Shown piece after piece: positions 28,207 through 49,086 of a DNA stretch of 64,000 nt. The stretch spans positions 42,045 to 106,044 of the forward strand of contig JBGPIA010000002.1 in the NCBI GenBank assembly GCA_041484665.1, read 5' to 3'. The translations under genes were made by a program, and so were the position numbers. Source of the DNA: Candidatus Krumholzibacteriia bacterium (GTDB lineage: Bacteria; Krumholzibacteriota; Krumholzibacteriia; JAJRXK01). Position 1 is the first letter of the stretch. Each line of letters opens with the position of its first letter. Below the pieces are notes generated by a model. That model made no database searches, was not told the DNA's origin, and saw only the letters and a program-made list of their open reading frames with translations.

Positions 28207-28242
28207 CCCCAGCCCCCGCGCACCCGCGACAGGGAGGTCGTG

Positions 28243-32016: not shown

Positions 32017-32122
32017 GTCTTCCTCCTTGAAGGTGGGCGAGGGTCCGATTCCGAACTTCGCTCGCAGGGGGCGCTGCCGGTCCGTGGCGTCTCCCCCCGG
32101 GGCGGTCGTCGTTGTGCCCGGG

Positions 32123-32149
32123 ATATCGGCCGGGGGCGGTCGGACTTGA
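32123..32149 (-). promoter_or_regulatory. Sigma-28 (FliA)-type promoter for flagellin: TCAAGTCC-N11-GCCGATAT
   Basis: The reverse complement matches the TAAAGTTT-N11-GCCGATAA consensus with exact spacing. The ~100-nt leader carries several GGA motifs (CACGGAC, UCGGAAUCGGAC, CAAGGAGGAAG), the last overlapping the Shine-Dalgarno sequence. Confidence 0.55.
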
Positions 32150-32195
32150 GCCACAGTTTCGGCGCGGCACGGGCCTTGAGAGGGCCTTCCCCGGC

Positions 32196-33104: not shown

Positions 33105-34756
33105 GTGCGCAAGACGGCGGCGGCGGGCCTCGGCTCTCCGTGTGCATGATCGCGCGCAACGAGGCCGCCATCCTCGGCCAGGCGCTGGAGTCGGTGCGCT
33201 CGCTGGCCGATGAGATCGTCGTGGTGGACACCGGCAGCGAGGACGATACGGCGCAGCTTGCCCGTTCGCTGGGGGCGGTGGTGGCCCATTTCCCGTGGAC
33301 CAACGACTTCAGCGCCGCGCGCAACGCCTCGCTGCAGGCGGCCACCGGCGATTGGGTGCTGATCCTGGACGCCGACGAGCTGATCCAGGAGCAGGACCAC
33401 GCGCTGATCGCCGCCCTGCTGCGCGGCCCGCGTACGGCGGCCTACATGCTCGAGCAACGCAGCTACACCGATCGCACCGATGTCCTGGATTGGATCCCCA
33501 ACGACGGGCGCCATTCTGGCAGCTGCGCGTACGCGGGCTACGTGAGCATCTGGCAGGTGCGCCTGGTGCCACGCGACCTGCGCGTGCGCTACGCGGGCGC
33601 GGTGCACGAGGAGACGGACGCCAGTCTGCGTGCCGCCGGCTACGCCATCGAGCACCGTCCGATCGTCGTGCACCATTTCGGCAAGGTGCGCGAAGCGGCG
33701 GTGATGGCGCGCAAGCAGGAGCTCTACACCCGCCTGGGCGAGCAGAAGGTCCTGCACAGCCCCCAGAGTCCGCGCGCTCTTTACGAGCTGGCGGTGCAGT
33801 ACGCCGAGGTGGGGCGCCGCGACGAGGCCCAGGCGGCCCTGGAGCGCTTTCTCACGATGGGGGCCGAGCCCTTCTTTCGGGGGCGCGCCGCCGCCATCCT
33901 CGGGCAGCTCTACCTGCAGCGCGGCGAGCCTGCCCGCGCCGTTGACGTGCTGGAGCGCGGCGTGCGCGAGCATCCCGTCCTGGTGAGCCTCTGGCATACG
34001 CTGGCCCACGCGCTGGATCAGTCGGGACAGCGCGCGCGCGCCGTGCTGGTCCTCGAGCAGGCCCTCGCCATCTTCGAGGACCACGTGACGCTGCGCGCCT
34101 ACCTGGGGATGCTCTATCTGGAGTTGCGCCAGTGGGACGTCGCCCACGCCTGCTTCACGGCCGTGCGCGAGCGCTTCCCGGCCAGCCCCGCGGCGCGCGC
34201 GGGGCTCGCGCTGCAGCCGCTGTTGCGGCGCGGGGTCGCGGGTCTGACGCTGGCCCGGCCGTGGCTGCAGGAGACATCCGCTGCGCAGCGCCAGACCATT
34301 GCGCAGATGCTGGTGCGCGCGGGCCAGACGCCGGCGGCCCTCGCCGTGCTGCTCGACGCCTCTGCGGCGGACCGGGCGGCGCTGCTGCCGGAGCTGGAGC
34401 GCGTCGCCGGCTGCGCCGGCGATCCGTGGAGCGCGGCCGCGGCCGCCTGCGCTCGGTCGCTGCACGAAACGCTCACAGGAGCGGAACGGGCGGCGACGGC
34501 GCGCCGGTGGCTTGGCGCTTCGACGTTGGGCAGCGGTCTGGCCCTGCTCCATCCGGCGGGGGAGGTCGAGCCGGGCTTGTTGGGCCTGCGCGCGGCCGCG
34601 CTGGCGCGGCTGGGGTGCCCGGCGCTCGCGCGGGCCGGGCTGTCCGCGCTGCGCGCCCGGCCGGGCTGGGCCGATGCCGCCGACCGGATCCTGGCCACGC
34701 TGCCCAGCGGCGCACCCGCGAGCCCGGGGTCAAGCCGCGGAGCCTCCGGCCGATAA
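33101..34756 (+). CDS. Family-2 glycosyltransferase with a C-terminal TPR-repeat domain
   Basis: GT2 N-terminus LSVCMIARNEAAILGQALESVRSLADEIVVVDTGSEDDTAQLAR...WVLILDADE. Long Ala/Leu TPR-like repeats follow. It has an ATGA overlap with the GNAT gene. Confidence 0.75.
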   Translation: MSAQDGGGGPRLSVCMIARNEAAILGQALESVRSLADEIVVVDTGSEDDTAQLARSLGAVVAHFPWTNDFSAARNASLQAATGDWVLILDADELIQEQDHALIAALLRGPRTAAYMLEQRSYTDRTDVLDWIPNDGRHSGSCAYAGYVSIWQVRLVPRDLRVRYAGAVHEETDASLRAAGYAIEHRPIVVHHFGKVREAAVMARKQELYTRLGEQKVLHSPQSPRALYELAVQYAEVGRRDEAQAALERFLTMGAEPFFRGRAAAILGQLYLQRGEPARAVDVLERGVREHPVLVSLWHTLAHALDQSGQRARAVLVLEQALAIFEDHVTLRAYLGMLYLELRQWDVAHACFTAVRERFPASPAARAGLALQPLLRRGVAGLTLARPWLQETSAAQRQTIAQMLVRAGQTPAALAVLLDASAADRAALLPELERVAGCAGDPWSAAAAACARSLHETLTGAERAATARRWLGASTLGSGLALLHPAGEVEPGLLGLRAAALARLGCPALARAGLSALRARPGWADAADRILATLPSGAPASPGSSRGASGR

Positions 34757-34828
34757 CCACCACGCTGGGACGGGGCAGCCGCGCGGACACGCCGCGCGCT
34801 GATTCCCTCGCCCGGCCGAGGTGGGACG

Positions 34829-35155
34829 GTGAACTCGAAGGTGGCTCTGCTCCAGCAGGTGCTGGCCGTCGCGCGGCGCCAAGTCATGGCGTTTGCCGAG
34901 ATGGACCTGGATTTGCTAGAGCGGCTTGCGCAGGAGCGAGCCGATCTGTCGCGGCGCCTGGATTGCCTGGCCGAGCTGCCGGCGGCGTCGGCCGAGGGCG
35001 CCGACGTGCCCACCGCGCGCCTGCTCCACGAGATCCACGACGTCGACCTGCAGCTCAAGGACGGGATCGACGCCCGGATCCGCGACTGCACGCGACGGCT
35101 GCAGCAGCTCACCTGGCGGGTGCAGGATCTCGCCGCGCCGGCGCTGGCGCGCTAG
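34829..35155 (+). CDS. Small helical protein upstream of flgM (possible FlgN/FliT-like flagellar chaperone)
   Basis: 108 aa with coiled-coil composition and position next to flgM. No diagnostic motif. Confidence 0.35.
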   Translation: MNSKVALLQQVLAVARRQVMAFAEMDLDLLERLAQERADLSRRLDCLAELPAASAEGADVPTARLLHEIHDVDLQLKDGIDARIRDCTRRLQQLTWRVQDLAAPALAR

Positions 35156-35716: not shown

Positions 35717-37855
35717 ATGCCGGTTCGTCACGGCGCCAGCAGGCCGCCCTCCGGCGAGCCGGCGCCTTCCCCTCAGACCGTCCTGCTCATCTCCGGGGAT
35801 CCGGCTCTTGCCGCTCTGCTCTCCACATGCGGAGTGACCGTCGAGCGCGATGTGCACACGGCGCCGGCCGTCGTGCTGCTGGATCTCGACGGCAGCGCCG
35901 AGCCCGCGGGAGCGCGGGTGGCGCACACGCGGGCGGCGCATCCAGACGCGCTCGTGCTGGCCGTCGGTGAAGGCAACCCCGGGCGCGCCGTGGCCGAAGC
36001 GCTGCGCGCCGGTGCCAGCGACTGGATCTTCCGCCCGCTGGACCGCTGCGAGCTCGCGCGGGCGCTGGACGCCGCGCTGCTCCGCCAAAACCTGGGACGC
36101 CAGGGGCGCAACGTCCTGGAATTCCTCCAGGAGCAGGGCCGCCGCGTCGAGGAGGAGCGCCGCCGCTTGACGCGTCGAATCGCGGCCATGGGCGAGGAGC
36201 TGGAGGCGGCGCATGCGGAGCTGGCGGGGGCGCACCGCGCCCTGCGCGCGCGCGTCGCGCAGCTAGCCATGCTCTACCGGATCGGACGCGACCTGAGTCA
36301 CGATCACAACTGGGACGCGGCGCTGGCGCGGCTTCTGGCGAGCCTGCGCGAGTTCCTGGTGGCGCGCGGTGCCGGCCTGTTGCTGGCCAGCTCGGGCGGC
36401 CGGCGGCTCGCCTTGCGCAGCGCCGACGCCCTCGATGGCACAGTGGTCGAGCGCGCCACCCGGCTCCTGCTGCGCAGCGGCCTGCAGCGCCACCGTGAGC
36501 CGTACCTGTATCCGCTCGAGCAGCTCGAGCGGGAGACGCCGCTGCCGTGCGTCGACCACGCGGGACCGTGGGACGTCACGGTGCTGCCGCTGCAGCGCGG
36601 CGAGGAGGTGCTGGGCTTCCTGCTGCTGGACAAGCCGTATGCCGGCAGCGCCGCCATCGCCGAGGATCTGCATTTCCTGATCACGATCCAGACGATTCTG
36701 ACCGAGGAGGTGGCCGGCGCGCAGGCTTTCTTCGAGCTGCAGCGCCTGCAGGGATTTCAGGAGCGGACGCTGGACCAGGTCGAGAGCGGAATCATCACGC
36801 TGACGGGCGACGGCGGGATGGTCTACGCCAACCGCAAGGCGCGGGATCTGCTCGCCGGATTGCCCGAGCCCGAGGGCGTGGCGCACGCGCTGCGGGTCGG
36901 GACGGACGGCGTACCGCTGCTCACCTGGCTGCTGGCGCAGGCGGACGAAGGGAGCGCCCAAGGCGAGGGCTGGCTGGCCGGCGCGGCCGCGCAGGGGCCG
37001 ATCCCGCTCGCGCTGCGCGCGTCGCGCTGGCGCGGGGAGGCGCCAGGGCAGACCTATCACGTGGTCATCCTCGAGGATCAGCGGGCCACGCGGCGACTGG
37101 AGGCGGAGCGCAGGCGCGCCGCTCGGCAGCAGGAGCTGCTGGTGATGGCCGCCGAGTGGGCGCACGACGTGCGCACGCCGCTGACGGGGATCCTCCACAG
37201 CGCGGAGCTGCTGGCCGAGGCGAGCGGCGCCACGGGCGGGCGCGACCGTCACCTGCAGGTGATCCGTGGCGAGGTGGACCGTCTCAACGGCCTCGTCTCC
37301 AATTTCCTGGACTTCGCGCGACCGGTGCGTCTGGAGCGCCGGCCAGCGGATCTGGCGGACGTCGCGGCCGGCGCGGTGGAGCTGATGCAGGCCAAGGCCT
37401 CCCAGCGCGCGGTGACGCTCGCGTTGGCGCCGCCCGCAGGCGGCGGACTGATGGCCGAGGTGGACGTCGACCAGATCAAGCAGGTGCTTCTCAACCTCAT
37501 CGACAACGCGCTCGACGCTTCGCCGCCGGGGCGCGCCGTGGTGGTCGAGGTGCGCCGCGATCCGCCATCGCCGACGCCGCTGGAGGCCGTGGTGAGCGGC
37601 CCGGGGATCGCGCTGGTGGTGGTCGACGAGGGATCCGGGGTCAGCGCCGAGCACATCGAGCGCCTGTTCGTGCCGTTCTTCACCACCAAGACGAAGGGCA
37701 ACGGGCTGGGGCTGGCCATCTCCGAGAAGATCGTGCGCGGGCACGGCGGCCACCTGCGCTACGAACGTCGTGAAGGCCGCACCTACCTCTGGGCGCTGTT
37801 GCCGGCGGCTGTGCCGGCGGGTGCCGCGACCGAGACCCTGCAAGCAAGAGGCTGA
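35717..37855 (+). CDS. Cytoplasmic sensor histidine kinase (pseudo-receiver - GAF/PAS - HisKA - HATPase_c), NtrB/FleS-like
   Basis: H-box AAEWAHDVRTPLTGI. N/G boxes LLNLIDNALDAS...GLGLAISEKIVRGHGGHL. No TM segments. Confidence 0.8.
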   Translation: MPVRHGASRPPSGEPAPSPQTVLLISGDPALAALLSTCGVTVERDVHTAPAVVLLDLDGSAEPAGARVAHTRAAHPDALVLAVGEGNPGRAVAEALRAGASDWIFRPLDRCELARALDAALLRQNLGRQGRNVLEFLQEQGRRVEEERRRLTRRIAAMGEELEAAHAELAGAHRALRARVAQLAMLYRIGRDLSHDHNWDAALARLLASLREFLVARGAGLLLASSGGRRLALRSADALDGTVVERATRLLLRSGLQRHREPYLYPLEQLERETPLPCVDHAGPWDVTVLPLQRGEEVLGFLLLDKPYAGSAAIAEDLHFLITIQTILTEEVAGAQAFFELQRLQGFQERTLDQVESGIITLTGDGGMVYANRKARDLLAGLPEPEGVAHALRVGTDGVPLLTWLLAQADEGSAQGEGWLAGAAAQGPIPLALRASRWRGEAPGQTYHVVILEDQRATRRLEAERRRAARQQELLVMAAEWAHDVRTPLTGILHSAELLAEASGATGGRDRHLQVIRGEVDRLNGLVSNFLDFARPVRLERRPADLADVAAGAVELMQAKASQRAVTLALAPPAGGGLMAEVDVDQIKQVLLNLIDNALDASPPGRAVVVEVRRDPPSPTPLEAVVSGPGIALVVVDEGSGVSAEHIERLFVPFFTTKTKGNGLGLAISEKIVRGHGGHLRYERREGRTYLWALLPAAVPAGAATETLQARG

Positions 37856-37860
37856 ATGTC

Positions 37861-39264
37861 ATGTCCGAGAAATACACGATCCTCATCTGCGACGACGAGG
37901 CGACCATCCGCACCTCGCTGCGCGAAGCGCTCGAGGGGCAGGGCTACCAGGTGCTCGAAACGGGCGATGGCGCTGGGGCACTGGCGAGCTTGCGGGAGGC
38001 CCGGCCGGATCTGATGCTGCTGGATCTGAAGCTGCCCGACACCACGGGCGTCGAGCTGCTGCGCACATTGCGCGGCGACGGCTACGCGTCCCCCGTGATC
38101 CTGATGACCGCCTATGGGGACATGCCCACGGCCGTGGAGGCCATGCGGCTGGGCGCGTACGACTTCGTCCAGAAGCCCTACAGCTTGGCGGACATGAAGC
38201 TGAAGGTGAAGGCTGCCCTCAAAGTCCATGAGCGGCAGGAAGTTGCCCGTTCGAAAGCAGGCAGGGCCACAGCGCGCGAAGGACGCTATCTTTCGCTGCT
38301 GCGCCTCTCACCGGGCCTCGCCGAGGTCGTTGAGCGGATCGACAAGGTGGGGCGCAGCCGAGCGGGCAACGAGGTGTCGGTGCTCATCCAGGGTGAGAGC
38401 GGCTCGGGCAAGGAGCTCGTGGCGCGCGCCATCCACGAGGTGAGCCTGCCCGGCGAGCCCTTCATGGAGATCAACTGCGCCGCCGTCCCCGAGGCGCTGC
38501 TGGAAAGCGAGTTGTTCGGCCATGAGAAGGGCGCCTTCACCGACGCGCGCGCGGCCAAGGAGGGATTGTTCGAGCTGGCGGGCCAGGGGACGATCTTCCT
38601 CGACGAGATCGGTGAAATGGGGGTGACCCTGCAGAGCCGCCTGCTGCGCGTGATCGAGAACCGGCGCTTCCGCCGCGTGGGCGGCAAACAGGACCACGAG
38701 GTGCGGGCCCGCATCGTCGCGGCCACCAACCGCGAGCTCCAGCGCGCCATCGAGGATGGCATCTTCCGCAACGACCTCTACTACCGTCTGCAGGTGATCG
38801 AGATCCACATCCCGCCCCTACGCGAGCGGGCGGCCGACATCCCGGCGCTCACGAATATCTTCATCGCGGCCTTCAACGAGGAGCTGGGCCTCGCGTGCAA
38901 GCCGGCCAGCGCTGCGCTGTGCGAGATCCTCCAGACCTATCCGTGGCCGGGCAACGTCCGCGAGCTGCGCAACATGATCCGGCGGATCATGATCCTGGAG
39001 GAGCCCCCTGAGATCCTGCCCGTCCACCTGCCGCGCCACGTCCAGATCGGCGAGAACCCGCGGTCGCGAGCCGGCGGTGGCCTCGAGCGCATCGGTCGCG
39101 AGCTGCTGCCGCTGGCCGAGGTGGAACGCATCCACCTCGTGCACACGCTCGCCTCGGTGGACAACAACAAGAGCAAGGCGGCGCGCATCCTGGGCATCAG
39201 CCGCCAGACGCTCCGCGAGAAGCTGAAGGCCTACCAGGCAAGCGCCGGGGCGGACGAGGACTGA
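37861..39264 (+). CDS. Sigma-54-dependent response regulator (REC - AAA+ sigma-54 activator - Fis HTH), NtrC/FleR/FlgR-like
   Basis: REC: ILICDDE...LMLLDLKLPDTTG. Walker A: GESGSGKELVARAIH. GAFTDA (GAFTGA-like). ESELFGHEKGAFT. C-terminal HTH: AARILGISRQTLREKLK. Confidence 0.88.
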   Translation: MSEKYTILICDDEATIRTSLREALEGQGYQVLETGDGAGALASLREARPDLMLLDLKLPDTTGVELLRTLRGDGYASPVILMTAYGDMPTAVEAMRLGAYDFVQKPYSLADMKLKVKAALKVHERQEVARSKAGRATAREGRYLSLLRLSPGLAEVVERIDKVGRSRAGNEVSVLIQGESGSGKELVARAIHEVSLPGEPFMEINCAAVPEALLESELFGHEKGAFTDARAAKEGLFELAGQGTIFLDEIGEMGVTLQSRLLRVIENRRFRRVGGKQDHEVRARIVAATNRELQRAIEDGIFRNDLYYRLQVIEIHIPPLRERAADIPALTNIFIAAFNEELGLACKPASAALCEILQTYPWPGNVRELRNMIRRIMILEEPPEILPVHLPRHVQIGENPRSRAGGGLERIGRELLPLAEVERIHLVHTLASVDNNKSKAARILGISRQTLREKLKAYQASAGADED

Positions 39265-39470
39265 CCTCGCGTCTGCCAATTTTCCAGCCAAGCGCGTCGC
39301 GGGCGCGCCCCCACGGGCTCGCCGGCGATGCCCGCCCGTACCCGCGGCAAGCACCTGTCACCCCGCGGGCCTCGCTGCGGTTGCGGTCGCCCGCCCGCCC
39401 GAGGGTCTAGCGGCGAATCGGCGCTGCGCGTGCGGCTTCGCGCCCGTGCAGAGGTCGCCGGCTCGGCGGC

Positions 39471-39494
39471 GCGCAGCGCCCACGGCCGCTGCGC
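39471..39494 (+). promoter_or_regulatory. Inverted repeat GCGCAGCG-N8-CGCTGCGC ~65 nt upstream of the sigma-54 element (candidate enhancer-binding-protein site)
   Basis: Seen directly. Its function is inferred from position only. Confidence 0.25.
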
Positions 39495-39544
39495 CGGCGC
39501 CGGCGCAGCCGCCGCCGTGCCGCCCGCCTCCGGAAGAACTTGCA

Positions 39545-39560
39545 TGGCATTGCTCTTGCG
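39545..39560 (+). promoter_or_regulatory. Sigma-54 -24/-12 promoter: TGGCAT-N5-TTGCG
   Basis: TGGCATTGCTCTTGCG at 39545-39560. It lies immediately upstream of the secreted-protein / histidine kinase / NtrC-type regulator / flgB operon. The ATG at 39579 would leave only a ~8-nt leader, so the true start may lie downstream. Confidence 0.55.
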
Positions 39561-39578
39561 CCAGCCGGCGTGTCCGCC

Positions 39579-40619
39579 ATGCGTACGACCCTTGGCATCG
39601 CCGTCTTCTGCGCGCTCCTGTGCGCGCATCCGTGTGCCGCGGCGCAGCCGCTCACCGTCGAGGAGTTCCATGCCTTCCAGGACGGCCTGCAGCGCTTGGG
39701 CACCCACGCGCTGCCCGGTGCCGCCCTCCTGGACAGCACGGTCGTCGTGCCCCCGCCGCTGGCGGCGCCGGCGGGTGCCCCGCTGCAGAGCATGGCACGG
39801 TCGCTGCGCGCGATCTCGGCGAACGTCGACTCCGCGCGGGTGGTGACCGACCACAACTGGCTGGGCGCCATCGCGCTGGCCCGCAGCCTGCGCGACCTGG
39901 GCTTCCGCCAGCGCTCCCTGCAGTGGTACGAGCGCGCGCTGGACTCCGATCCCGACGGGACGTTCACCAGCGAGGCCGTCGAGGAGATGGCTGCCGTCGT
40001 GATCGCGAGTGCCGACAGCGCGGTGCTGGTGCAGCGCATCCGTGAGTTCGCTGGGCGGCGCGACGCGGCTCTGCACGGCGATGCATTGGCGACGCTGCTG
40101 GAAGCGCTGCTGACCTGGCGGGTGGGCGACGCGACGCTTGCTCTGTGCAGTCGCCTGGAGACGGTGGCCGCGCCGGCTCCAAGCCTGCGTCTAGCCATCG
40201 CCCGCGCGCGCGAGCTGGGTGGTGACCCGGCCACAGCGCTCTCGGGTTACCGGGCGCTGCTGGGCGAGAGCGCGTTGGACACCCGCTCGTTGTGCCGCGT
40301 CCGCTGCGGGGTGGCCGACTGCGCCTTCGCGCTGCGCGATCTCGGCGAGGCACAGCGCCTCTACGGCGAGATCCAGCGTACCAACGCGGGCGACCTCAGC
40401 GCCTGGGCCACCTACCAGCTCGGGTCCATTGCCGGCCTGCAGGGACGCTACGGCGAGGCCCTCGTCCATTTCCGCAGCCTGTGCGAGCGCGGGCGTCCGA
40501 CGCGCTGGCAGCAGGAAGCCTGTTGGCAGCGCGCGCGCGCCGAGGAGCTCCTGGCCATCCGCGCGGGGGACCGGGCGCCGGCCGCTGCCGCCGCGCATTC
40601 CCCGGGAGGCGGCTCGTGA
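39579..40619 (+). CDS. Secreted hypothetical protein with TPR-like helical repeats; first gene of the sigma-54-driven flagellar operon
   Basis: Signal peptide MRTTLGIAVFCALLCAHPCAAAQP. Helical repeats. No recognisable flagellar family. Confidence 0.55.
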   Translation: MRTTLGIAVFCALLCAHPCAAAQPLTVEEFHAFQDGLQRLGTHALPGAALLDSTVVVPPPLAAPAGAPLQSMARSLRAISANVDSARVVTDHNWLGAIALARSLRDLGFRQRSLQWYERALDSDPDGTFTSEAVEEMAAVVIASADSAVLVQRIREFAGRRDAALHGDALATLLEALLTWRVGDATLALCSRLETVAAPAPSLRLAIARARELGGDPATALSGYRALLGESALDTRSLCRVRCGVADCAFALRDLGEAQRLYGEIQRTNAGDLSAWATYQLGSIAGLQGRYGEALVHFRSLCERGRPTRWQQEACWQRARAEELLAIRAGDRAPAAAAAHSPGGGS

Positions 40620-41005
40620 GCGCCGCCTTGACACGGCTGCTGTCCGCCTACCGCGAGCAGGCGCACGCCTACGAAGCGGTGCTGGAGCTTGCGCAGGAGG
40701 GCGTGGCGGCAGTGCGCGCCGGCGCGCCGCTTTTGCTGCTGCACGAGCTCAATGTGCGCAAGCGGGGCTGCCTCGAGCACATCGAGCAGATCGAGGCGGG
40801 GATCGCCGCCGACAAGCAGGCCTGGCGCGCCGGAGCGCGCGCTGGACGGGAGGCCCTGGAGCTGGAGCGCCTGCTGGCGGAGCTGACCGATCTGATCGAG
40901 CAAATCCTCGCCTGCGAGCGCGAGACGGATCGTTGGGTCGTGCAGGGGGCCGGCGAGCTTCCAGCGGACGTGGCGAGTCTGGCCGCGGCCGCGGAGCCGG
41001 CGTGA
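40616..41005 (+). CDS. Small helical hypothetical protein (possibly FlgN/FliT-like), GTG start
   Basis: 129 aa: LSAYREQAHAYEAVLELAQEGVAAVRAG...LEHIEQIEAGIAADKQAWR. GTG overlaps the previous stop. Confidence 0.45.
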   Translation: MSAALTRLLSAYREQAHAYEAVLELAQEGVAAVRAGAPLLLLHELNVRKRGCLEHIEQIEAGIAADKQAWRAGARAGREALELERLLAELTDLIEQILACERETDRWVVQGAGELPADVASLAAAAEPA

Positions 41006-41019
41006 CGGCAGGAGGCGCG

Positions 41020-41784
41020 ATGGCACAAGGACTCCTGCTTCCCCTGCCGTCCGGTGCGCCGCCGGCGCCTTCGCCGGAGCTCGCCCTGGTGCTCAGCGGC
41101 GCGTTGCACAGCAGTCGCAACCTCGTCATGGCGATGCGCGGCTACGCCGAGCTGATCCGCAAGCGCGACGACGCGGTGGACCGCCATGCCGAATGGGCGG
41201 ACAAGATCATCCATCAGCTCGATCGGCTCAACGAGCTCTATACGCGCGTGTCGGCGCTGTCGGCGCCGCCCTCGGCCTGGCGTCCGGTGGCGGTGGAGCT
41301 GCTGCTGCGCGGCGCCGAGACGCAGGCGCGCCAGCGCTTCGCCGGCGGTCGGAGCGACGTGGGAATGCGGCTGCGCGTGGCTGGCGCGGCGTGCCTCCAC
41401 GGCGACGCGCAGGAGCTCACGCGCTCGCTCTCGGCGGTGCTGGAGAACGCGCTGGAAGCCTCGCCCGCGGGCGCGGCCATCGCCGTGGAGGCGGTGGCCG
41501 ACGCGGCCGGCCGCCTGCATCTAGCCGTCGAGGACCAGGGCAGCGGGCTCACGCCAACGCAGCTGGAGCGCGCCGGCCAGCCCTTCTACACGACCAAGCC
41601 CGACCGGCTGGGGCTGGGGCTGTTCCTGGCCCGCTCGATCCTGGGCCGCTACGGGCTTGGTTTGACCATCGAGAACCGCGCCGTGGGCGGCGCGCGCGTG
41701 GTCATCACCGCGGTCGCCCTTGCGACCACACCGGCCACGTTCGCGAGCGCCGGGACCTCGGATCTTCAGGGAGGAACCCAATGA
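41020..41784 (+). CDS. Soluble histidine kinase (HisKA-like + HATPase_c)
   Basis: GGCAGGAGG RBS. ...AVLENALEASPAGAAIAVEAV...DQGSGLTPTQLERAGQPFYTTKPDRLGLGLFLARSILGRYG (N/G boxes). Confidence 0.7.
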   Translation: MAQGLLLPLPSGAPPAPSPELALVLSGALHSSRNLVMAMRGYAELIRKRDDAVDRHAEWADKIIHQLDRLNELYTRVSALSAPPSAWRPVAVELLLRGAETQARQRFAGGRSDVGMRLRVAGAACLHGDAQELTRSLSAVLENALEASPAGAAIAVEAVADAAGRLHLAVEDQGSGLTPTQLERAGQPFYTTKPDRLGLGLFLARSILGRYGLGLTIENRAVGGARVVITAVALATTPATFASAGTSDLQGGTQ

Positions 41785-43154
41785 GAGAACGCCGCCGCAT
41801 CCTGGTCATCGAGGACGAGAAGGCGACGCAGGACTTGTTGCGCAGCGAGCTCGAGACGCGCTACGCCGTGGCGTGCGCCGGCAATGGGGAGGAGGGACTC
41901 GAGCTCCTGCAGCGAGACGGGGCCGACATCGTCTTGCTGGACCTCAGCCTGCCGGGGATGCACGGGTTGCAGGTGCTGCAGGAGATAGCGCGGCGGATGC
42001 CCCAGCCACCTGCCGTGGTGGTGATCACCGCCGACGAGCAGCTCTCCTCGGCCGTGGAGGCGGTGCGCGCCGGCGCCTACGATTACCTCACCAAGCCATT
42101 CCCCCTCGACCGGCTGTGCACGGCCATCGAGCGGGCCGACGAGCGCCTCCGCCTGCTGCGCGAAAACGTCTCGCTGCGGCAGACGCTCTCCGCCGCTCGG
42201 CAGTTCCGCGGACTGCTCGGCAACAGCCAACCCATGCAGAGCCTCAAACGCGATGTCGAGAAGATCGCGGACTCGCGCGGGACCGTGCTGCTCACCGGTG
42301 AGTCCGGAACGGGCAAGGAGCTGGTAGCGCGCGCCGTCCACGAGCTCTCCATGCGCCGCAACGGTCCGTACATCCGGATCAACTGCTCGGCGGTGCCCGA
42401 AGGGCTGCTGGAGAGCGAGCTGTTCGGGCACGAGAAGGGATCGTTCACCAGCGCCATCGCCCGCCGCGAGGGCATGTTCGAGCTGGCCGACAGCGGCACG
42501 CTGCTGCTGGACGAGATCAGCGAGATCAACACCGGGATGCAGTCGCGGCTGTTGCGCGTGCTGCAGGAGCGGGAGTTCATGCGCGTGGGCGGCAAGGTCC
42601 CCATCAAGGTGGACGTGCGCGTAATTGCCACCACCAACAAGGAGCTCAAGGCCCTGGTGCGCGAGGGGAAGTTCAAGGACGACCTGTATTACCGCCTCAA
42701 CGTCATCCCGTTGCACATCTGTCCGCTGCGCGAGCGGGTGGAGGACATCCCGGTCCTGGCACGCTTCTTCATCGAGCGCGCCTGCGCGGAGAACGGGCGG
42801 TCGCTCATGGCGCTCACGCCGGCGGCGATGAAGACGCTCTGCGCCCACTCGTGGCCGGGCAACGTGCGCGAGCTGGAGAACAGCCTGGAGCGCACGGTGA
42901 TCCTCAACGACCGCGACGCGATCGACGTGAGCGATCTGCACCTGGACACCGACGCGCTCTTCCCACCGCCGTCGACGCGCCTGGACAAGGACGACCTGAC
43001 GCTGCGCGAGCTGGAGAAGGAGCTGATCCTGCGTCGGCTGTCCATCACCGGTGGAAACCGCACCCGGGCCGCGCAGCTCCTGGGGATCAGCGTGCGCACT
43101 CTGCGCAACAAGATCAATCTGTACCGCGGTGAGGGGATCCGCATCCCCGGCTGA
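41781..43154 (+). CDS. Second sigma-54-dependent response regulator (REC - AAA+ - HTH), immediately upstream of flgB
   Basis: ILVIEDE...IVLLDLSLPGMHG; GESGTGKELVARAVH; ESELFGHEKGSFTSA; ...AAQLLGISVRTLRNKI. AGGGAGG RBS. Confidence 0.88.
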   Translation: MRERRRILVIEDEKATQDLLRSELETRYAVACAGNGEEGLELLQRDGADIVLLDLSLPGMHGLQVLQEIARRMPQPPAVVVITADEQLSSAVEAVRAGAYDYLTKPFPLDRLCTAIERADERLRLLRENVSLRQTLSAARQFRGLLGNSQPMQSLKRDVEKIADSRGTVLLTGESGTGKELVARAVHELSMRRNGPYIRINCSAVPEGLLESELFGHEKGSFTSAIARREGMFELADSGTLLLDEISEINTGMQSRLLRVLQEREFMRVGGKVPIKVDVRVIATTNKELKALVREGKFKDDLYYRLNVIPLHICPLRERVEDIPVLARFFIERACAENGRSLMALTPAAMKTLCAHSWPGNVRELENSLERTVILNDRDAIDVSDLHLDTDALFPPPSTRLDKDDLTLRELEKELILRRLSITGGNRTRAAQLLGISVRTLRNKINLYRGEGIRIPG

Positions 43155-43193
43155 CACACGGCGCGCCCGGCTCGCCGCGCGGCGCACGCGCGC

Positions 43194-43619
43194 ATGGAGG
43201 AGATGATGATCGCTGCGACGCTTTTCGACCAGCCCCACATGGAGCTGCTGAAGCGGGCTCTGTCGGCCTATTCGCTGCGCCACCGGGTGGTGGCCGACAA
43301 CCTCAGCAACGTGGGGACGCCCGGCTACCAGGCGCAGGCCGTGGACTTCGAGACGGCGCTTGCCAACGCCGCGCCGCCGTTTCGCCTGCGTGGAACGGTG
43401 ACCGCCCCAGGCCATCTGCCGTTGGGCGTGGCCGCGGAGCCGTCCGCGGCGCGCACGCAGCCGGTGGGCGAGCCGTTCGACAACGGCGTCAACGACGTGA
43501 ACGTCGATCGCGAGATGGGCGAGCTGGTGAAGAACGACCTGGCCTTCCGCATGGCCACCCGCCTGCTCTCCCGGCGTTACCAGGGGCTGCGCATCGCCAT
43601 CACCGGACGCACGCAGTGA
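43194..43619 (+). CDS. flgB: Flagellar proximal rod protein FlgB
   Basis: ...LRHRVVADNLSNVGTPGYQAQAVDFE...VNVDREMGELVKNDLAFRMATRLLS. Confidence 0.88.
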   Translation: MEEMMIAATLFDQPHMELLKRALSAYSLRHRVVADNLSNVGTPGYQAQAVDFETALANAAPPFRLRGTVTAPGHLPLGVAAEPSAARTQPVGEPFDNGVNDVNVDREMGELVKNDLAFRMATRLLSRRYQGLRIAITGRTQ

Positions 43620-43656
43620 CGGGACGCGCGGACCGCCGCGCACCCCGTAGGAGGTC

Positions 43657-44169
43657 TTGACCATGACCATGCGCTTGTTCGGCGCCATCGACCTGAGCGC
43701 GAGCGGCCTGCGCGGCCAGCGCGCCAAGCTGGAGGTGGTGGCCGAGAACATCGCCAATGCCCAGACCACGCGCACGCCGGAAGGGGGCCCCTACCGGCGC
43801 AAGCAGACGGTGTTCACCGCCGCGGCGCCCGAGCAGGCGGAGACGACCCTGCTGCCCTACGGCGGGAACGACTTCTTCCGCCTGCTGCTCACCAACGAGC
43901 GGCACATGGATCGCGGCCGCGAGGCCAGCCAGATCGAGCTGCCGCGCGGCTCGGAGGTGGGCGTGGAGGAGGCGCCGGACGCGACCCGCTTCAAGCTGGT
44001 CTACGACCCCGGGCATCCCGACGCGGACGAGGAGGGCTACGTGCTCATGCCCAACGTGAACATGGTGTCGGAGATGGTGGACATGATCGCGGCCTCGCGC
44101 GCCTACGAGGCGAACGTGAGCGCGATCGAGAGCGCCAAGGACATGTTCCTGCAGGCGCTGGAGATCTAG
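43657..44169 (+). CDS. flgC: Flagellar rod protein FlgC
   Basis: ...FGAIDLSASGLRGQRAKLEVVAENIANAQTTRTPEGGPYRRKQTVF...NVNMVSEMVDMIAASRAYEANVSAIES. Confidence 0.9.
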   Translation: MTMTMRLFGAIDLSASGLRGQRAKLEVVAENIANAQTTRTPEGGPYRRKQTVFTAAAPEQAETTLLPYGGNDFFRLLLTNERHMDRGREASQIELPRGSEVGVEEAPDATRFKLVYDPGHPDADEEGYVLMPNVNMVSEMVDMIAASRAYEANVSAIESAKDMFLQALEI

Positions 44170-44179
44170 GGAGGCCGTC

Positions 44180-44500
44180 GTGAGCGCCGTCAAGGGTATC
44201 ATCGGCGCGGCCCCGGAGCTCGTCGCCAAGGCCTACGAGGCCGCGGCGGGCGTGGGCCCGCAGGTCGAGGCCAGAGCCGCCGGCGGCTTCGGCCAGACGC
44301 TGGCGCGGCTGGTCGGCGACGTCGACCGGCTGCAGGACCATTCCGGCGAGGTGACGCGCCGCCTGGTGGCCGGCGAGCCCACCGACGCCCACGAAGTGAT
44401 GGTCGCCACCGAGGAGGCCGGCCTGGCCTTCAGCCTGATGGTGGAAGTGCGCAACAAGCTCCTCGAGGCGTACCAGGAGCTCATGAGGATGCAGGTCTGA
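44180..44500 (+). CDS. fliE: Flagellar hook-basal body protein FliE
   Basis: ...GGFGQTLARLVGDVDRLQDHSGEVTRRLVAGE...HEVMVATEEAGLAFSLMVEVRNKLLEAYQELMRMQV. Confidence 0.85.
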   Translation: MSAVKGIIGAAPELVAKAYEAAAGVGPQVEARAAGGFGQTLARLVGDVDRLQDHSGEVTRRLVAGEPTDAHEVMVATEEAGLAFSLMVEVRNKLLEAYQELMRMQV

Positions 44501-44550
44501 CGTCGCGGGCGCGAGCCGGCCGCGGCGCGTGAGGCAGAGAGAAAGCGGGC

Positions 44551-46029
44551 ATGGATTCCCTGCAAGCGGTTCTGGAGCGGCTGCGCCGCGTCTGGGCGAG
44601 CTTCTCATTCAACCAGAAGGCGATCCTGGTGATCGTCTTGGGCGCGGCCTTGGTCAGCTCGCTGGTGTTCGTGCGCTGGCTGCGCCAGGACGACATGGTC
44701 GTGCTCTCCAGCGACCTGTCCGCCGAGGACGCCGCCGAGATCCTCGACCAGGTCTCCAAGGCGGGCGTGCGTGCCGAGCTGGGCAACGCCGGCCACACGA
44801 TCCTGGTGCCGGCCAGCGAGGTAGACCGGTTGCGGGTGGGGATCGCCAGCCAGGGGCTCCCTCGCCAGGGGCGCATCGGCTGGGAGATCTTCAACAAGGG
44901 CAACTACGGGATGACGGAGTTCCAGGAGAACGTCACCCTGCGCCGGGCCCTGGAGGGCGAGCTGGCGCGCACCATCGAGAGCATCCAGGGCGTCAAGAGC
45001 GCCCGCGTCCACATCACGCTGCCGCAGCAGAGCCTGTTCTTGCGCGACGAGCGCGCGGCCACGGCGGCCGTGTTGCTCACGCTGCGCGGGCGGGGGCGCC
45101 CGGGGCGGGAGCAGATCGAGGGGATCCAGCACCTGGTGGCCAACGCGGTGGAGGGGCTGCAGCCGGGCAAGGTGACGGTGGTGGACAACTCGGGGGCCGT
45201 GATGAGCAGCGACGACAGCGACGACGCGGCCGGGCTTTCCAGCAAGCAGCTCCGCGTGCGCAAGGAGGTCGAGGACTACCTCGGCGGCAAGGCGGCCGAC
45301 ATGCTGGCTGCGGTGTTGGGCCCGGGGCACTCCATGGTGCGCGTCAACGCCGAGCTGGATTTCGACCGCATCGAGCGCACGACCGAGCAGTACGACCCCC
45401 AGACCGTCGTGCGCAGCGAGGAGCGGACCGACGAGTCCAACCCGGGCGCCGGCGGAACGACCGAGCGATCGCTGACCAACTACGAGGTGAGCCGCACCGT
45501 CCAGAAGGTCCTCAACACCGGTGGCGGCGTCCACAAACTCGACGTAGCGGTCTTCGTCGACGGCAAGCACGCGCCAGCCGCCGATGCCAAGGGCGGCCAG
45601 CCCGCCAGCTACACCCCCCGCACCAGCGAGGAGCTGGACCAGATCCAGCGCATCGTCGCCAAGTCGGTGGGAGTCGACCCCACGCGCGGGGACCTGATCG
45701 AGGTCGTGAACATGCAGTTCGACGTGCCGCAAGCGCCCAAGACCACGCTGCTGGAGAACCCGATGCTGCAGACCGCACCGTCGTTGATCGGTCGCCTGGC
45801 TCTGTTCGCCGTGGCGGCCGTGCTGATCCTGGGGCTGCGCCGCAGCCTGGGCAAGATGGTGCGCGAGGTGTCGCGCCCACTGCCCGACGTGGGTCCGGTG
45901 CGCGGCGCCGCGCTGGCCAGGGCCAAGGCCGAGGCGCGCACGCCGGTGGCCGACATGGAGGACTGGGCCCGCGGTGACCCCGAAGAGGTCGCCAACCTGA
46001 TCAAGGCCTTCGCCAGCTCCGAGGAGTAG
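44551..46029 (+). CDS. fliF: Flagellar MS-ring protein FliF
   Basis: MDSLQAVLERLRRVWASFSFNQKAILVIVLGAALVSSLVFVRWL...GVKSARVHITLPQQSLFLRDE... 492 aa, with a second TM near the C-terminus. Confidence 0.9.
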   Translation: MDSLQAVLERLRRVWASFSFNQKAILVIVLGAALVSSLVFVRWLRQDDMVVLSSDLSAEDAAEILDQVSKAGVRAELGNAGHTILVPASEVDRLRVGIASQGLPRQGRIGWEIFNKGNYGMTEFQENVTLRRALEGELARTIESIQGVKSARVHITLPQQSLFLRDERAATAAVLLTLRGRGRPGREQIEGIQHLVANAVEGLQPGKVTVVDNSGAVMSSDDSDDAAGLSSKQLRVRKEVEDYLGGKAADMLAAVLGPGHSMVRVNAELDFDRIERTTEQYDPQTVVRSEERTDESNPGAGGTTERSLTNYEVSRTVQKVLNTGGGVHKLDVAVFVDGKHAPAADAKGGQPASYTPRTSEELDQIQRIVAKSVGVDPTRGDLIEVVNMQFDVPQAPKTTLLENPMLQTAPSLIGRLALFAVAAVLILGLRRSLGKMVREVSRPLPDVGPVRGAALARAKAEARTPVADMEDWARGDPEEVANLIKAFASSEE

Positions 46030-46033
46030 ACGC

Positions 46034-47035
46034 GTGACGCCGATGACCTCGACGCGTAAGACGGCCATCGTGCTGATCTCGATGGGCTCGCGCATCGCCG
46101 GGGAGATCCTCAAGCGCATGCCCGAGGCGCTGGTGGAGCAGATCACCGCCGAGATCGCCAGCATCAAGCAGGTCACGCCCGAGGAGCGCCGGCTGGTCTT
46201 CAAGGAGCTGCGGGAGTTCCAGGCCAAGATCTCCGCCTTCGACAAGGGCGGCACCGACTTCGCCCGCGAGATGCTCGAGCAGGCGGTGGGCACCCACCGC
46301 GCCAGCACGCTGATCAGCCGCGCCACGGGCTTCGGCGACACCGCAAGCTTCGAGATGCTCAAGAAGGCCGATCCGCTGACGGTGGCCAACTTCCTCAAGG
46401 CCGAGGCCGCCCAGACCGTCGCCCTGGTGCTGGCCCACGTGGACCCGCGGTGGGCGGGGCCGATCCTCGCCCGCCTGCCCAGCACCATGCAGGCCGAGGT
46501 GGCCTTCCGCATGGCGTCCCTCGGCCAGCCCAACCCGGAGTTCGTGCGCGAGGTGGAGCTCGCCCTGGCCAAGGGGGTCAAGGGCGAGTACGAGGCCACC
46601 GTGAAGCAGTACGGCGGCACCAAGCAGGTGGCCGACCTGTTCAACCAGATCGACCAGGAGGTCTGGGGCGAGATCCTCGAGGATATGAAGCGGCTGGACA
46701 ACGACACCGCCGCGCAGGTGAAGAACCTCATGTTCGTGTTCGAGGACATCGTGACGCTCGATGACAAGTTCGTGCAGGAGATGCTCAAGGAGGTCGACAG
46801 CCGCGAGCTGGGGCTCGCGCTGAAGGCCGCCAGCGACATCGTGAAGCAGAAGATCTTCAGCAACATGTCCAAGCGAGCCGCCGCGGGTATCAAGGAGGAC
46901 ATGGAATACACCGGTGCGGTGCGTCTGTCCGAGGTACAGGAGGCGCAGCAGCGCGTGGTCGACGTGCTGCGCCGCCTGGAGGAGGCCGGCACGGTGGTGC
47001 TCAGCGGCGGCAAGGGCGGCGATGTCCTCGTCTAG
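46034..47035 (+). CDS. fliG: Flagellar motor switch protein FliG
   Basis: ...KTAIVLISMGSRIAGEILKRM...QVKNLMFVFEDIVTLDDKFVQEMLKEVDSRELGLALKAASD... (MFxF/EDI region). Confidence 0.92.
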   Translation: MTPMTSTRKTAIVLISMGSRIAGEILKRMPEALVEQITAEIASIKQVTPEERRLVFKELREFQAKISAFDKGGTDFAREMLEQAVGTHRASTLISRATGFGDTASFEMLKKADPLTVANFLKAEAAQTVALVLAHVDPRWAGPILARLPSTMQAEVAFRMASLGQPNPEFVREVELALAKGVKGEYEATVKQYGGTKQVADLFNQIDQEVWGEILEDMKRLDNDTAAQVKNLMFVFEDIVTLDDKFVQEMLKEVDSRELGLALKAASDIVKQKIFSNMSKRAAAGIKEDMEYTGAVRLSEVQEAQQRVVDVLRRLEEAGTVVLSGGKGGDVLV

Positions 47036-47720
47036 CGCGACCGCGGCAACGCCGGCGCACGGCTTCGCGCCCAACGCGGCACCACAGCCAGCGCCCGCCG
47101 CGCCCTTCGTCGAAGAATTCAGCCGGCACGCCTCCGCCCCCTTCCGGGAGCTGTTGGCCGAGACCGCGGCGATGGCCACCGGCAAGGCACTCCTCCCCAG
47201 CGCCGCCGCGCGCGAGGATGTACTGCTGGCCGAACTGGAGCGCATGCAGGGCGCTCTGGTGCGCGCACAGCACGAGAGTGCCGACCTGCGCGCTCAGTGG
47301 GAGGCCGAGCGGGACGGGATTCTGGCCTCCATCGTCCAGGAGCTCCGCACGAACTTCCAGACGCAGATGGAGGAGATCGCGGCGGCCGCACTGCGGCTGA
47401 CGCTGGAGGCGGCCGAGCGGATCGTTCGCCGCGAGCTGGCGGTGGACCCCGAGGCGATCGAGCGCCTGCTGCGCGACGTGCTCTGGCGGCTGGCCGACGC
47501 GCGGTCACTGCGCCTGCGGGTCAGCCCGCAGGACGCGCAGCTGCTGGAGTCGCGCGCGGCGCTGCTGGCGGAGCTGCACGTGGCCGAGGTGGTGCGCGAT
47601 CGCCGCGTCACCTCTGGCGGCTGCTTGCTGGAGTCGGGCGACCGGGCCTGGGATGCCACCGTGGAGGGCCAGCTGGAGCAACTGCGTCTCGCGCTGGCGC
47701 GCCTGCTGGAGAAAGCGTGA
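47022..47720 (+). CDS. fliH: Flagellar assembly protein FliH
   Basis: Position between fliG and fliI. Ala/Glu-rich coiled coil, then ...AERIVRRELAVDPEAIERLLRDVLWRLADARSLRLRVSPQDAQLL. It overlaps fliG by 14 nt. Confidence 0.7.
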   Translation: MSSSSATAATPAHGFAPNAAPQPAPAAPFVEEFSRHASAPFRELLAETAAMATGKALLPSAAAREDVLLAELERMQGALVRAQHESADLRAQWEAERDGILASIVQELRTNFQTQMEEIAAAALRLTLEAAERIVRRELAVDPEAIERLLRDVLWRLADARSLRLRVSPQDAQLLESRAALLAELHVAEVVRDRRVTSGGCLLESGDRAWDATVEGQLEQLRLALARLLEKA

Positions 47721-49045
47721 CCTCCGCGTTGCTGGACGCCGCGCGCTCGGCGGTGCGCAGCGCCGACCTCGTCCGCGGTCGCGGCCGCCTCACGCAGGTG
47801 GTGGGCCTGGTGCTCGAGGTCCGGGGGCTGTGCGCCTCCATCGGCGATCTCTGCTGGATCGAGGTGGGCCGCCAGCTGCCCGAGGTGCCCGCCGAGGTGG
47901 TGGGCTTCCGCGAGGACGCGCTGCTGCTGATGCCCTACGGCTCGCTGATCGGCATCGCCGCCGGGAGCCGCGTGCGCACCCATGGTGAGCGCTTGCGCGT
48001 GCCCGCCGGAGTGGAGCTGCTGGGGCGCGTCCTCAACGCCGTGGGCGAGCCCATCGATGGAGGGCCACCGCTCTCCTGCCGCGAGACCACCAGTCATCTC
48101 GGCCGGGTGCCGCCGCCCTTGGCCCGCCAGCGCATCCGGGAGGTGCAGCCCACCGGCGTGCGCGCCATCGACGCGTTCGTGACCTGCGCGCGGGGCCAGC
48201 GCGTGGGGATCTTCGCCGGCAGCGGCGTGGGCAAGAGCGTGCTGCTGGGGATGATCAGCCGCCACAGCGCGGTGGACGTCAACGTCGTGGCCCTGATCGG
48301 CGAGCGAGGCCGCGAAGTGCGCGAGTTCATCGAGGAGGATCTGGGGCAGGATGGCCTGGCGCGCAGCGTGGTGGTGGTGGCCACCAGCGACGAGAGCGCG
48401 GTCCTGCGCGTGCGGGCCGCCCAGAGTGCCATGGCCATCGCCGAGTGGTTCCGCGAGCACGACCGCAACGTGATGTTCCTGATGGACTCCACCACCCGCT
48501 ACGCCATGGCGCTGCGGGAGATCGGGCTGGCGGTGGGGGAGCCCCCCACGACCAAGGGCTACACGCCGTCCTCCTTCGCCGAGCTCCCGCGGCTGCTGGA
48601 GCGCGCCGGCACCAGCCGCGTCAACGCCATGACCGGCTTCTTCACCGTGCTGGTCGAGGGGGACGATCTCAACGATCCGGTGGGCGACGCGGTGCGTGCC
48701 ATCGTCGACGGGCACATCGTCCTGGCGCGCGACCTGGCCCGGCGCGGGCACTACCCAGCCATCGACGTGCTGGGCAGCGTCAGCCGGCTCATGCCCCAGG
48801 TGACCACGCCCGAACACCGCGCGAGCTCCGCCCGCGTGCTCAACTGGCTGAAGCTGCTGGAGGACCACCAAGACCTGATCACGATCGGCGCCTACACGCG
48901 CGGCCACCACGCCGAGCTGGATATCGCCCTCGATCTGCGGCCGCGCCTGGACGCGTTCCTGCGGCAGGGGATCGGCGAGAAGGCCGATCTCAGCGCCACG
49001 CTGGCGCAGCTTGCCCAGCTGGCCACGCCGGGCGCCACCGGCTGA
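47717..49045 (+). CDS. fliI: Flagellum-specific ATPase FliI
   Basis: Walker A GSGVGKSVLLGMI. ...VVALIGERGREVREFIE...LMDSTTRYAMALREIGLAVGEPPTTKGYTPS. GTG start overlapping the fliH stop. Confidence 0.92.
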   Translation: MTSALLDAARSAVRSADLVRGRGRLTQVVGLVLEVRGLCASIGDLCWIEVGRQLPEVPAEVVGFREDALLLMPYGSLIGIAAGSRVRTHGERLRVPAGVELLGRVLNAVGEPIDGGPPLSCRETTSHLGRVPPPLARQRIREVQPTGVRAIDAFVTCARGQRVGIFAGSGVGKSVLLGMISRHSAVDVNVVALIGERGREVREFIEEDLGQDGLARSVVVVATSDESAVLRVRAAQSAMAIAEWFREHDRNVMFLMDSTTRYAMALREIGLAVGEPPTTKGYTPSSFAELPRLLERAGTSRVNAMTGFFTVLVEGDDLNDPVGDAVRAIVDGHIVLARDLARRGHYPAIDVLGSVSRLMPQVTTPEHRASSARVLNWLKLLEDHQDLITIGAYTRGHHAELDIALDLRPRLDAFLRQGIGEKADLSATLAQLAQLATPGATG

Positions 49046-49086
49046 CCGCGAGCACGTGCCCCCGGCGCTCGCCCAAGAGGATTCGC

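Follow-up and report, generated by a model that had tools for sequence, protein, structure and literature searches.

A conserved sigma-54 promoter element and two histidine kinase-activator pairs ahead of flgB in a Krumholzibacteriia flagellar gene block

Genes and promoters between EBP1 and fliJ

The present work concerns a stretch of 64,000 nucleotides from a Candidatus Krumholzibacteriia bacterium (contig JBGPIA010000002.1; called the window below, with all coordinates counted from its first letter), and in particular the segment in which two pairs of histidine kinase and sigma-54 activator genes precede the early flagellar genes from flgB onwards. The G+C content of the window is 71%, and its flagellar genes form one large block from ca 17 kb to the window end, as judged from Pfam and the precomputed annotation. 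The features of the segment lie on the forward strand. The first pair consists of HK1, a 712-residue soluble histidine kinase (35717-37855), and EBP1, a 467-residue NtrC-type sigma-54 activator (37861-39264) whose gene begins 5 nt after that of HK1. A spacer (39265-39544) leads to the element P2 (39545-39560), which matches a sigma-54 promoter of the -24/-12 type. It is followed by the genes for a 346-residue TPR protein with an N-terminal segment resembling a signal peptide (39579-40619), a 129-residue protein with a predicted FlgN-type chaperone fold (40616-41005), the 254-residue soluble histidine kinase HK2 (41020-41784) and the 457-residue NtrC-type sigma-54 activator EBP2 (41781-43154). 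Next come flgB, flgC, fliE, fliF, fliG, fliH, fliI and fliJ (43194-49554), where FlgB scores 75.9 bits against an NCBIfam cut-off of 59 and the other names come from precomputed Pfam matches. The gene calls for this part were taken from two independent annotations, those of NCBI and JGI. An earlier, sequence-only reading of the window had proposed a sigma-54 promoter TGGCAT-N5-TTGCG at this position, followed by a signal-peptide TPR protein, a 129-residue protein, a kinase and an activator. The four genes are as it described them, and the promoter element is both present and conserved.

The P2 sequence is TGGCATTGCTCTTGCG, and in its element, TGGCATtgctcTTGCG, the GG and GC doublets are exactly 10 nt apart, in a TGGCAC-N5-TTGCW-like arrangement. 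The exact pattern TGGCA-N6-TTGC is found at three sites in the 64 kb, compared to 0.49 expected (three sites are reached in 3 of 100 shuffles), and all three are on the forward strand, in intergenic gaps just upstream of flagellar operons. When one mismatch is allowed, there are 16 sites against 15.3 expected from the shuffles; this pattern is not enriched, and the sequence match alone is therefore weak evidence for P2. The strong evidence is conservation. Orthologous loci were gathered by exact-protein look-ups, by genome and metagenome scans (which yielded two and three loci, respectively) and through members of two small protein families. In all 10 independent related loci, that is, in every locus that reaches upstream of the TPR gene (L005, L008, L009, L010/L013, L011, L015, L016, L017 and L018), YGGCAY-N5-TTGCG is present 19-47 nt before the start of that gene, while the TPR proteins of these loci share only 22-45% identity with the query and the remainder of the spacer cannot be aligned between clades. 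On this basis P2 looks like a genuine sigma-54 promoter. The distance from TTGC to ATG is 19 nt here and in L005 and 30-47 nt in the other relatives, where a Shine-Dalgarno sequence (GGAGG) is present. The mRNA of this genome and of its closest relative, L005, would thus be nearly leaderless (39560-39579; L005:827-846).

The closest named relative locus, L008, belongs to a metagenome-assembled genome (MAG) of Candidatus Krumholzibacteriota; its two activators and FlgC are 63-71% identical to those of the window, and its FliG 65%. The arrangement with flagellin, HK1-EBP1, P2, the four genes, and then flgB to fliH or beyond is kept in L008, L009, L010, L013/L014, L015, L016 and L018, and synteny from fliD to fliJ extends to loci whose FliG is only 49-68% identical. 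L018 represents a distant clade, with a TPR protein ca 25% and a FliG 52% identical to those of the window. A different arrangement is seen in L017 (493-2125), where an EBP1-type activator is followed by a hairpin, the sigma-54 element, the TPR gene, a homolog of the 129-residue protein (hhalign probability 97.5%) and then flgB, flgC, fliE, fliF, fliG and fliH, with no HK2-EBP2 between the FlgN-like gene and flgB. The L017 activator is 60% identical to EBP1 over its available C-terminus and 37% identical to EBP2. The missing pair could be either a lineage loss or the ancestral state. The hairpin of this locus, with its T run, overlaps the sigma-54 element.

The genes downstream of P2 are closely packed. 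The TPR gene and the 129-residue protein gene overlap by 4 nt (GTGA), as do HK2 and EBP2 (ATGA), and the 14 nt between the 129-residue protein gene and HK2 contain an AGGAGG Shine-Dalgarno sequence at 41010-41015. Between EBP2 and flgB there are 39 nt with the JGI start (43194; gap 43155-43193) or 51 nt with the NCBI start (43206), compared to 4-48 nt in the relatives, and from flgB to fliG the intergenic gaps are 4-50 nt. Neither the sigma-54 scan nor the consensus scans revealed a promoter-like element in the EBP2-flgB gap, and there is no sigma-54-like element just upstream of it. Since this gap leaves no space for a promoter of flgB, co-transcription with the TPR-to-EBP2 genes is the simplest reading, and flgB-fliJ are probably transcribed together with the four genes from P2.

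The other two exact sigma-54 sites are P1 (19212-19227), ahead of the flgF/G...csrA operon, and P3 (49648-49663), in the 140-nt gap after fliJ and ahead of an MgtE_N-like gene. Both are on the forward strand with a Shine-Dalgarno sequence and start codon 28-31 nt downstream, and the core elements of P1, P2 and P3 are nearly identical. P3 is conserved in L008, L013 and L015, and the P2 unit therefore probably ends at fliJ and not at flhF. The uninterrupted operon from flgB to flhF proposed by the sequence-only reading thus holds for its first part, with no promoter before flgB and a unit that probably reaches fliJ, whereas its continuation to flhF is probably broken by P3 at 49648. Two sigma-28-type promoters of the pattern TCAAG-N13-GCCGATA complete the picture. 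One, TCAAGC-N13-GCCGATAA, lies ahead of flgM (34730-34757, forward strand), and L018 has a perfect TAAAGTTT-N11-GCCGATA at the equivalent place before flgM. The other, TCAAGT-N13-GCCGATAT, lies ahead of flagellin (32124-32149, reverse strand), with an equivalent in L008.

The spacer upstream of P2 separates EBP1 from the TPR gene by 314 nt, and it measures ca 315 nt in most relatives. It contains GCTGCGCCGGCGCCGGCGCAGC (39488-39509), a perfect 22-bp palindrome whose centre is ca 72 nt upstream of the predicted P2 start site. An inverted repeat with 8-bp arms had been noted here before; it is real, and is in fact part of this larger and stronger palindrome. There are three distinct perfect palindromes with arms of at least 11 bp in the 64-kb window, compared to 0.5 expected, and the half-site is a common, codon-driven sequence. 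From its sequence and its typical enhancer position, the palindrome is a credible candidate for an activator site. At almost the same distance from its promoter, L008 carries an inverted repeat of another sequence, CGACCGG-N9-CCGGTCG. The sequence ACCGGTTTCC-N4-CCGGTCG occurs exactly in two distantly related loci only, L008 (9766-9786) and L018 (ca 163 nt upstream of the promoter), and may be a clade-specific regulator site. Another candidate activator motif, 'GCAAGTCC', was rejected, since it is not enriched and is partly a sigma-28 -35-like sequence.

The window spacer has no Rfam match, and its RNA fold is no more stable than those of shuffled sequences. In the consensus scan of 34.7-43.7 kb, no sigma-70 promoter and no meaningful terminator were found. 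The relatives have strong GC hairpins soon after the EBP1 stop codon, which in L010/L013 and L017 are followed by T runs. Just downstream of this stop codon, L009 (9625-9690), L013, L015 and L016 have a conserved block, CTGGYCAGCTCTCGACCACCC, and then a strong GC hairpin that is variable in sequence with its pairing kept. By its sequence, this combination looks like a terminator or an element of the 3' untranslated region; it is not recognisable in the present window.

The two regulator pairs and the two small protein families

HK1 has clear HisKA (52 bits) and HATPase_c (74 bits) domains in Pfam, while its N-terminal region gives only sub-threshold matches of the receiver-like (TadZ_N), GAF (GAF_3) and PAS types. 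The protein is syntenic in L008, L009, L010, L013, L015, L016 and L018. HK2 is likewise a HisKA-HATPase_c kinase, with ca 29 residues in front of its phospho-acceptor His30. Since only 25-45 residues precede this histidine in the orthologs, the kinase has no sensor domain. A membrane segment is not likely in either HK1 or HK2.

Both activators have the full architecture of receiver, AAA+ domain, lid and HTH_8, with the acidic pocket kept. The Pfam scores for EBP1 and EBP2, respectively, are 103 and 96 bits for Response_reg, 212 and 226 bits for Sigma54_activat, and 56 and 45 bits for HTH_8. In EBP1, the receiver aspartate is found in LMLLDLKLP and the lysine in DFVQKP, and the Walker A motif (GESGSGK), the Walker B motif and a GAFTDA loop are present; the orthologs keep these motifs, except that the pattern search missed Walker A in L008 and the lysine motif in L018. 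EBP2 has its aspartate in IVLLDLSLP (missed by the pattern search in L018), its lysine in DYLTKP, both Walker motifs and a GSFTSA loop. As the loop that contacts sigma-54, all EBP1 orthologs have GAFTDA, while those of EBP2 have GSFTSA, GAFTNA or GAFTGA (GAFTGA in L018), and Phe-Thr is kept throughout. The proposal of two complete kinase-to-activator modules is supported by these findings, as both activators retain receiver Asp and Lys, Walker A and B, a GAFT-type loop and HTH_8. No equivalog-level NCBIfam name is assigned to either kinase or either activator, the best matches being generic AtoS/AtoC and NtrC models, and the closest PDB relatives of the activators are Aquifex NtrC1 and NtrC4.

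The TPR protein matches TPR_2 in Pfam with 29.4 bits (cut-off 27). Its most hydrophobic segment covers residues 4-22 and is followed by AAA-Q, and most members of its family also have a hydrophobic N-terminus in the alignment; the protein is thus predicted to be periplasmic. It is identical to a protein on JBGQFG010000022.1 (MAG GCA_041496785.1) and to one on a JGI metagenome contig. A word-index homology search returned only the protein itself. An exhaustive HMMER search yielded a family of 59 cluster representatives, ca 40 of which are of similar length and align end to end. The residues Arg102, Ser147, Asp247, Trp276, Cys302 and Cys315 are invariant, and the two cysteines are consistent with a disulfide in an exported protein. 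In the AlphaFold2 model, which has a predicted local distance difference test (pLDDT) score of 89.8, 17 helices form an all-helical TPR superhelix. Foldseek against the PDB gave only generic matches for this model, with designed or consensus TPR structures as the best ones at TM-scores of 0.45-0.5; a Campylobacter scaffold chain, 9hmf_K, is found at rank 39. Periplasmic TPR- or Sel1-type scaffold proteins are known from other flagella, namely PflA and PflB of Campylobacter, MotX of Vibrio and FlcA of spirochaetes. Like these, the present protein is all-helical, built of repeats, predicted to be secreted and encoded among flagellar genes, but with ca 350 residues, its own conserved motifs and a Cys pair it shows no specific kinship to such proteins in sequence or fold.

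The 129-residue protein is modelled with three long helices, in agreement with the FlgN three-helix fold. Its match to the FlgN family PF05130 (24.8 bits) is below the gathering threshold of 30.5 bits, and all five family members tested gave sub-threshold matches. For the model, Foldseek found no PDB match at E <= 0.001, searching PDB sequences with a profile of the family brought up only coiled-coil noise, and hhalign of the family against canonical FlgN and against a 108-residue open reading frame (ORF) upstream of flgM gave nothing. One homolog is annotated from Candidatus Krumholzibacteria bacterium. The protein differs from FlgN, the export chaperone of FlgK and FlgL (PDB 2fup, 8ftx), whose gene is as a rule close to those of its clients or to flgM, in being encoded at the head of the flgB operon, and the canonical FlgN of the window (24236-24745) is already present beside flgK.

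That the putatively secreted protein is a candidate flagellar component, as had been suggested earlier, is borne out in so far as its gene is linked to the flagellum: it is syntenic in every locus examined, and L017 keeps it in the absence of HK2-EBP2. From this gene order we infer that the TPR and FlgN-like genes are flagellum-associated and belong to the flgB operon independently of HK2.

A proposed two-tier cascade and its rivals

We consider the locus to be the regulatory head of an early-flagellar operon, with a two-tier sigma-54 cascade running from HK1-EBP1 to P2, from P2 to HK2-EBP2 and from there to P1 and P3, and we assign this reading a probability of roughly 0.6. HK1-EBP1 would form a transcription unit of its own. 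HK1 would phosphorylate EBP1, which would activate P2 in the tier-1 role held by FlrA or FleQ elsewhere. P2 would then supply HK2 and EBP2 together with the early parts, i.e. the proximal rod, MS ring, rotor and export ATPase. In a tier-2 role like that of FlrBC, FleSR or FlgSR, HK2 would phosphorylate EBP2, and the latter would activate P1 (distal rod, rings and hook junction) and P3 (hook, switch and export gate), after which sigma-28 would drive flagellin and flgM. The TPR and FlgN-like proteins would be lineage-specific, flagellum-associated parts or assembly factors.

Such a design is not exotic by analogy with the known FlrA-FlrBC and FleQ-FleSR hierarchies (PMC6504787, PMC7064773). In V. 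cholerae, the class I protein FlrA acts with sigma-54 on class II genes, including flrBC and fliEFGHIJ; phosphorylated FlrC and sigma-54 then activate the class III genes for rod, hook and rings and the fliK-flhB operon, and sigma-28 the class IV genes and flgM, the situation in P. aeruginosa being similar (PMC6504787). The gene order is also alike, with flagellin, flaG, fliD, the master activator, the kinase/activator pair, fliE-fliJ, fliK-flhB, flhA and flhF (PMC6504787, PMC7064773), as are the use of two sigma-54 activators, in series according to the present reading, the soluble tier-2 kinase, and the place of sigma-28 before flgM and the last class. In polar flagellates with FlhF, the kinase of the second tier is soluble and depends for its activity on an assembled export apparatus, MS ring and rotor (PMC7064773, PMC3760246).

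There are, however, distinct differences. FlrA and FleQ are orphans without a phospho-acceptor that are controlled by c-di-GMP, and FlhG/FleN acts on flrA transcription or on FleQ. EBP1 has a canonical receiver and its own 712-residue kinase; it is therefore not a member of the FlrA/FleQ family, though it may work like FlrA. HK2-EBP2 differs from FlrBC and FleSR in being embedded in a structural operon behind two extra genes, and HK2 from FlrB and FleS in lacking a PAS domain. In this last respect it resembles the FlgSR system of Campylobacter jejuni and Helicobacter pylori, which also pairs a cytoplasmic kinase without a recognisable sensor domain with an NtrC-type regulator. FlgSR drives the sigma-54-dependent rod and hook genes, and the activity of FlgS is coupled to how export apparatus, MS ring and rotor are assembled (PMC3760246, PMC7064773), but these species have no upstream master activator and their flgS and flgR are located outside the flgB/fliF operon. 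As a cytoplasmic kinase with an NtrC-type regulator among early flagellar genes, HK2-EBP2 has the character of a flagellar two-component system. Most likely, then, the two pairs work like the FlrA/FlrBC-type systems, without demonstrable orthology to FlrBC or FlgSR. The searched literature contained no description of flagellar regulation in this phylum, and nothing usable on Geobacter FgrM as a comparator.

It is important to point out that several observations speak against the proposed cascade. Both activators fall below every NCBIfam equivalog cut-off, with EBP2 reaching 313 bits compared to 750 for the FlgR model. No clear promoter for HK1-EBP1 was found in the scan of 34.7-43.7 kb, and the pair could possibly owe its transcription to read-through from the sigma-28-driven flgM; the scheme would then be a feedback loop and not a simple ladder. 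The rpoN gene is not in the 64-kb window. At P2 itself, the implied leader in this window (and also in L005) is only ca 8 nt and has no Shine-Dalgarno sequence, and the sequence of the 22-bp palindrome is not kept in the relatives. Furthermore, flgB and flgC are part of the P2 unit here and class III genes in Vibrio. No activator motif common to the P2 orthologs, or to P1, P2 and P3, was found beyond shuffle level, and among k-mers of 7 or 8 nt none is common to the nine P2 upstream regions beyond shuffles. The assignment of activators to promoters, as distinct from the promoters, the gene content and the integrity of the domains, which the sequences show, is therefore inferred only.

The lack of an enhancer motif tying EBP1 to P2 leaves some room for an arrangement without a ladder, in which EBP2, itself driven by P2, autoactivates this promoter by positive feedback, while EBP1 serves P1, P3 or other targets in parallel and the two modules carry different signals to different promoters. 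The near-identity of the P1, P2 and P3 cores would suit such a scheme. It requires a basal source of EBP2, however, and upstream of HK2 the scans showed no other promoter. In the known hierarchies the tier-2 system is under tier-1 control (PMC6504787), and in L017 P2 is retained with an EBP1-type protein as the only neighbouring candidate activator, which favours EBP1 acting on P2 generally. We therefore regard autoactivation as unlikely, though it is the most serious competitor of the cascade. Far less probable is that the P2 match is due to chance and that the HK1-EBP1 transcript continues into the genes behind it. The frequency of one-mismatch sites, the unusually short leader and the absence of a canonical terminator between EBP1 and the TPR gene in the window would fit this view, but it would leave unexplained why the element recurs in 10 of 10 related loci, each time in the same position with respect to the gene start, within an otherwise divergent spacer, and why strong hairpins, with T runs in L010/L013 and L017, follow EBP1 in the relatives.

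A further option is that the TPR and FlgN-like proteins serve HK2 chiefly as signalling accessories and are not flagellar parts, with the FlgN-like protein binding HK2 and reporting the state of the export gate. All HK2 orthologs lack an input domain, the FlgN-like gene is directly upstream of HK2 and overlaps it in L015, and the FlgN-like fold is that of export chaperones docking on FlhA and FliJ. Moreover, soluble flagellar kinases sense the assembly of the export apparatus and MS ring by a route that is unknown (PMC7064773, PMC3760246). However, the TPR protein is predicted to be periplasmic and HK2 is cytoplasmic, and L017 has both genes without HK2-EBP2 there. This points to an HK2-independent role, and the two proteins are therefore not merely HK2 accessories; we consider the accessory role doubtful, somewhat more so than the autoactivation of P2. 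One can nevertheless speculate, with a similarly low degree of confidence, that the FlgN-fold protein is the input device of HK2, docking on the export gate and freeing or activating the kinase once gate, MS ring and rotor are assembled, and that the TPR protein is, separately, an undescribed periplasmic flagellar component of the Krumholzibacteriota-like lineage.

If the two-tier cascade operates as proposed, the two-step sigma-54 flagellar hierarchy known from Gammaproteobacteria would extend, in altered form, to an uncultured phylum. The new elements are a tier 1 that would be fully phosphorylation-driven, a tier 2 inside a structural operon, a kinase without input domain and two lineage-restricted, uncharacterised proteins. 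With a full two-component system as the top tier, flagellar synthesis would be gated by phosphorylation and not through c-di-GMP acting on an orphan activator, and the second tier would be physically part of the structural operon on which it depends. Two small families, a predicted periplasmic TPR protein of ca 350 residues and an FlgN-fold protein of ca 125 residues, are defined here by their link to the start of the flgB operon. That a chaperone-fold protein is paired with a sensor-less kinase suggests a testable answer to the question of how soluble flagellar kinases sense assembly, and a FlgN-fold protein as HK2 input would, if true, constitute a physical mechanism for the assembly checkpoint that these kinases read.

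Flanking flagellar genes and neighbouring loci

The flagellar region begins, immediately upstream of P1, with the genes for a PilZ-domain protein and a receiver-PAS-HisKA-HATPase kinase (17087-19090). The latter is possibly a third kinase of the flagellar region, and the PilZ protein a possible c-di-GMP input. The P1 block has the order flgF/G, flgA, flgH, flgI, flgJ (rod-binding domain), flgN, flgK, flgL, fliW and csrA. The FlgJ-type rod-binding protein (23679-24242) and the canonical FlgN, which scores 52 bits in Pfam, are both encoded between flgI and flgK. The longest flgK frame shares its 5' end with the FlgN ORF, so that the true flgK start is probably further downstream. The flgK-flgL operon is closed by fliW and csrA (27691-28521), a partner-switch pair that controls flagellin translation in other phyla.

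The genes fliS, fliD, flaG and flagellin are on the reverse strand. After flagellin come an acetyltransferase, a GT2 glycosyltransferase fused to TPR repeats, flgM, HK1 and EBP1. The acetyltransferase and GT2-TPR genes (32112-34756) are divergent from flagellin and syntenic in all relatives, and they may form a flagellin modification module. The 108-residue ORF upstream of flgM (34829-35155), although called as a gene, matched no Pfam family, and tblastn did not find it in any of the related loci; it may not be a real gene.

On the other side, the P3 block comprises the MgtE_N-like protein, fliK, flgD, flgE, flbD, fliL, fliM, fliN, fliP, flhB, flhA and the start of flhF. The names fliK, flhA and flhF are based on a Flg_hook match, gene order and weak matches, without a direct family hit. 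The last ORF of the window is a truncated SRP54-type GTPase at the position expected for flhF, and flhG falls beyond the window. Upstream of the flagellar region, genes for EutN/CcmL, an aldehyde dehydrogenase and BMC-domain shell proteins (10892-13458) indicate a bacterial microcompartment locus.

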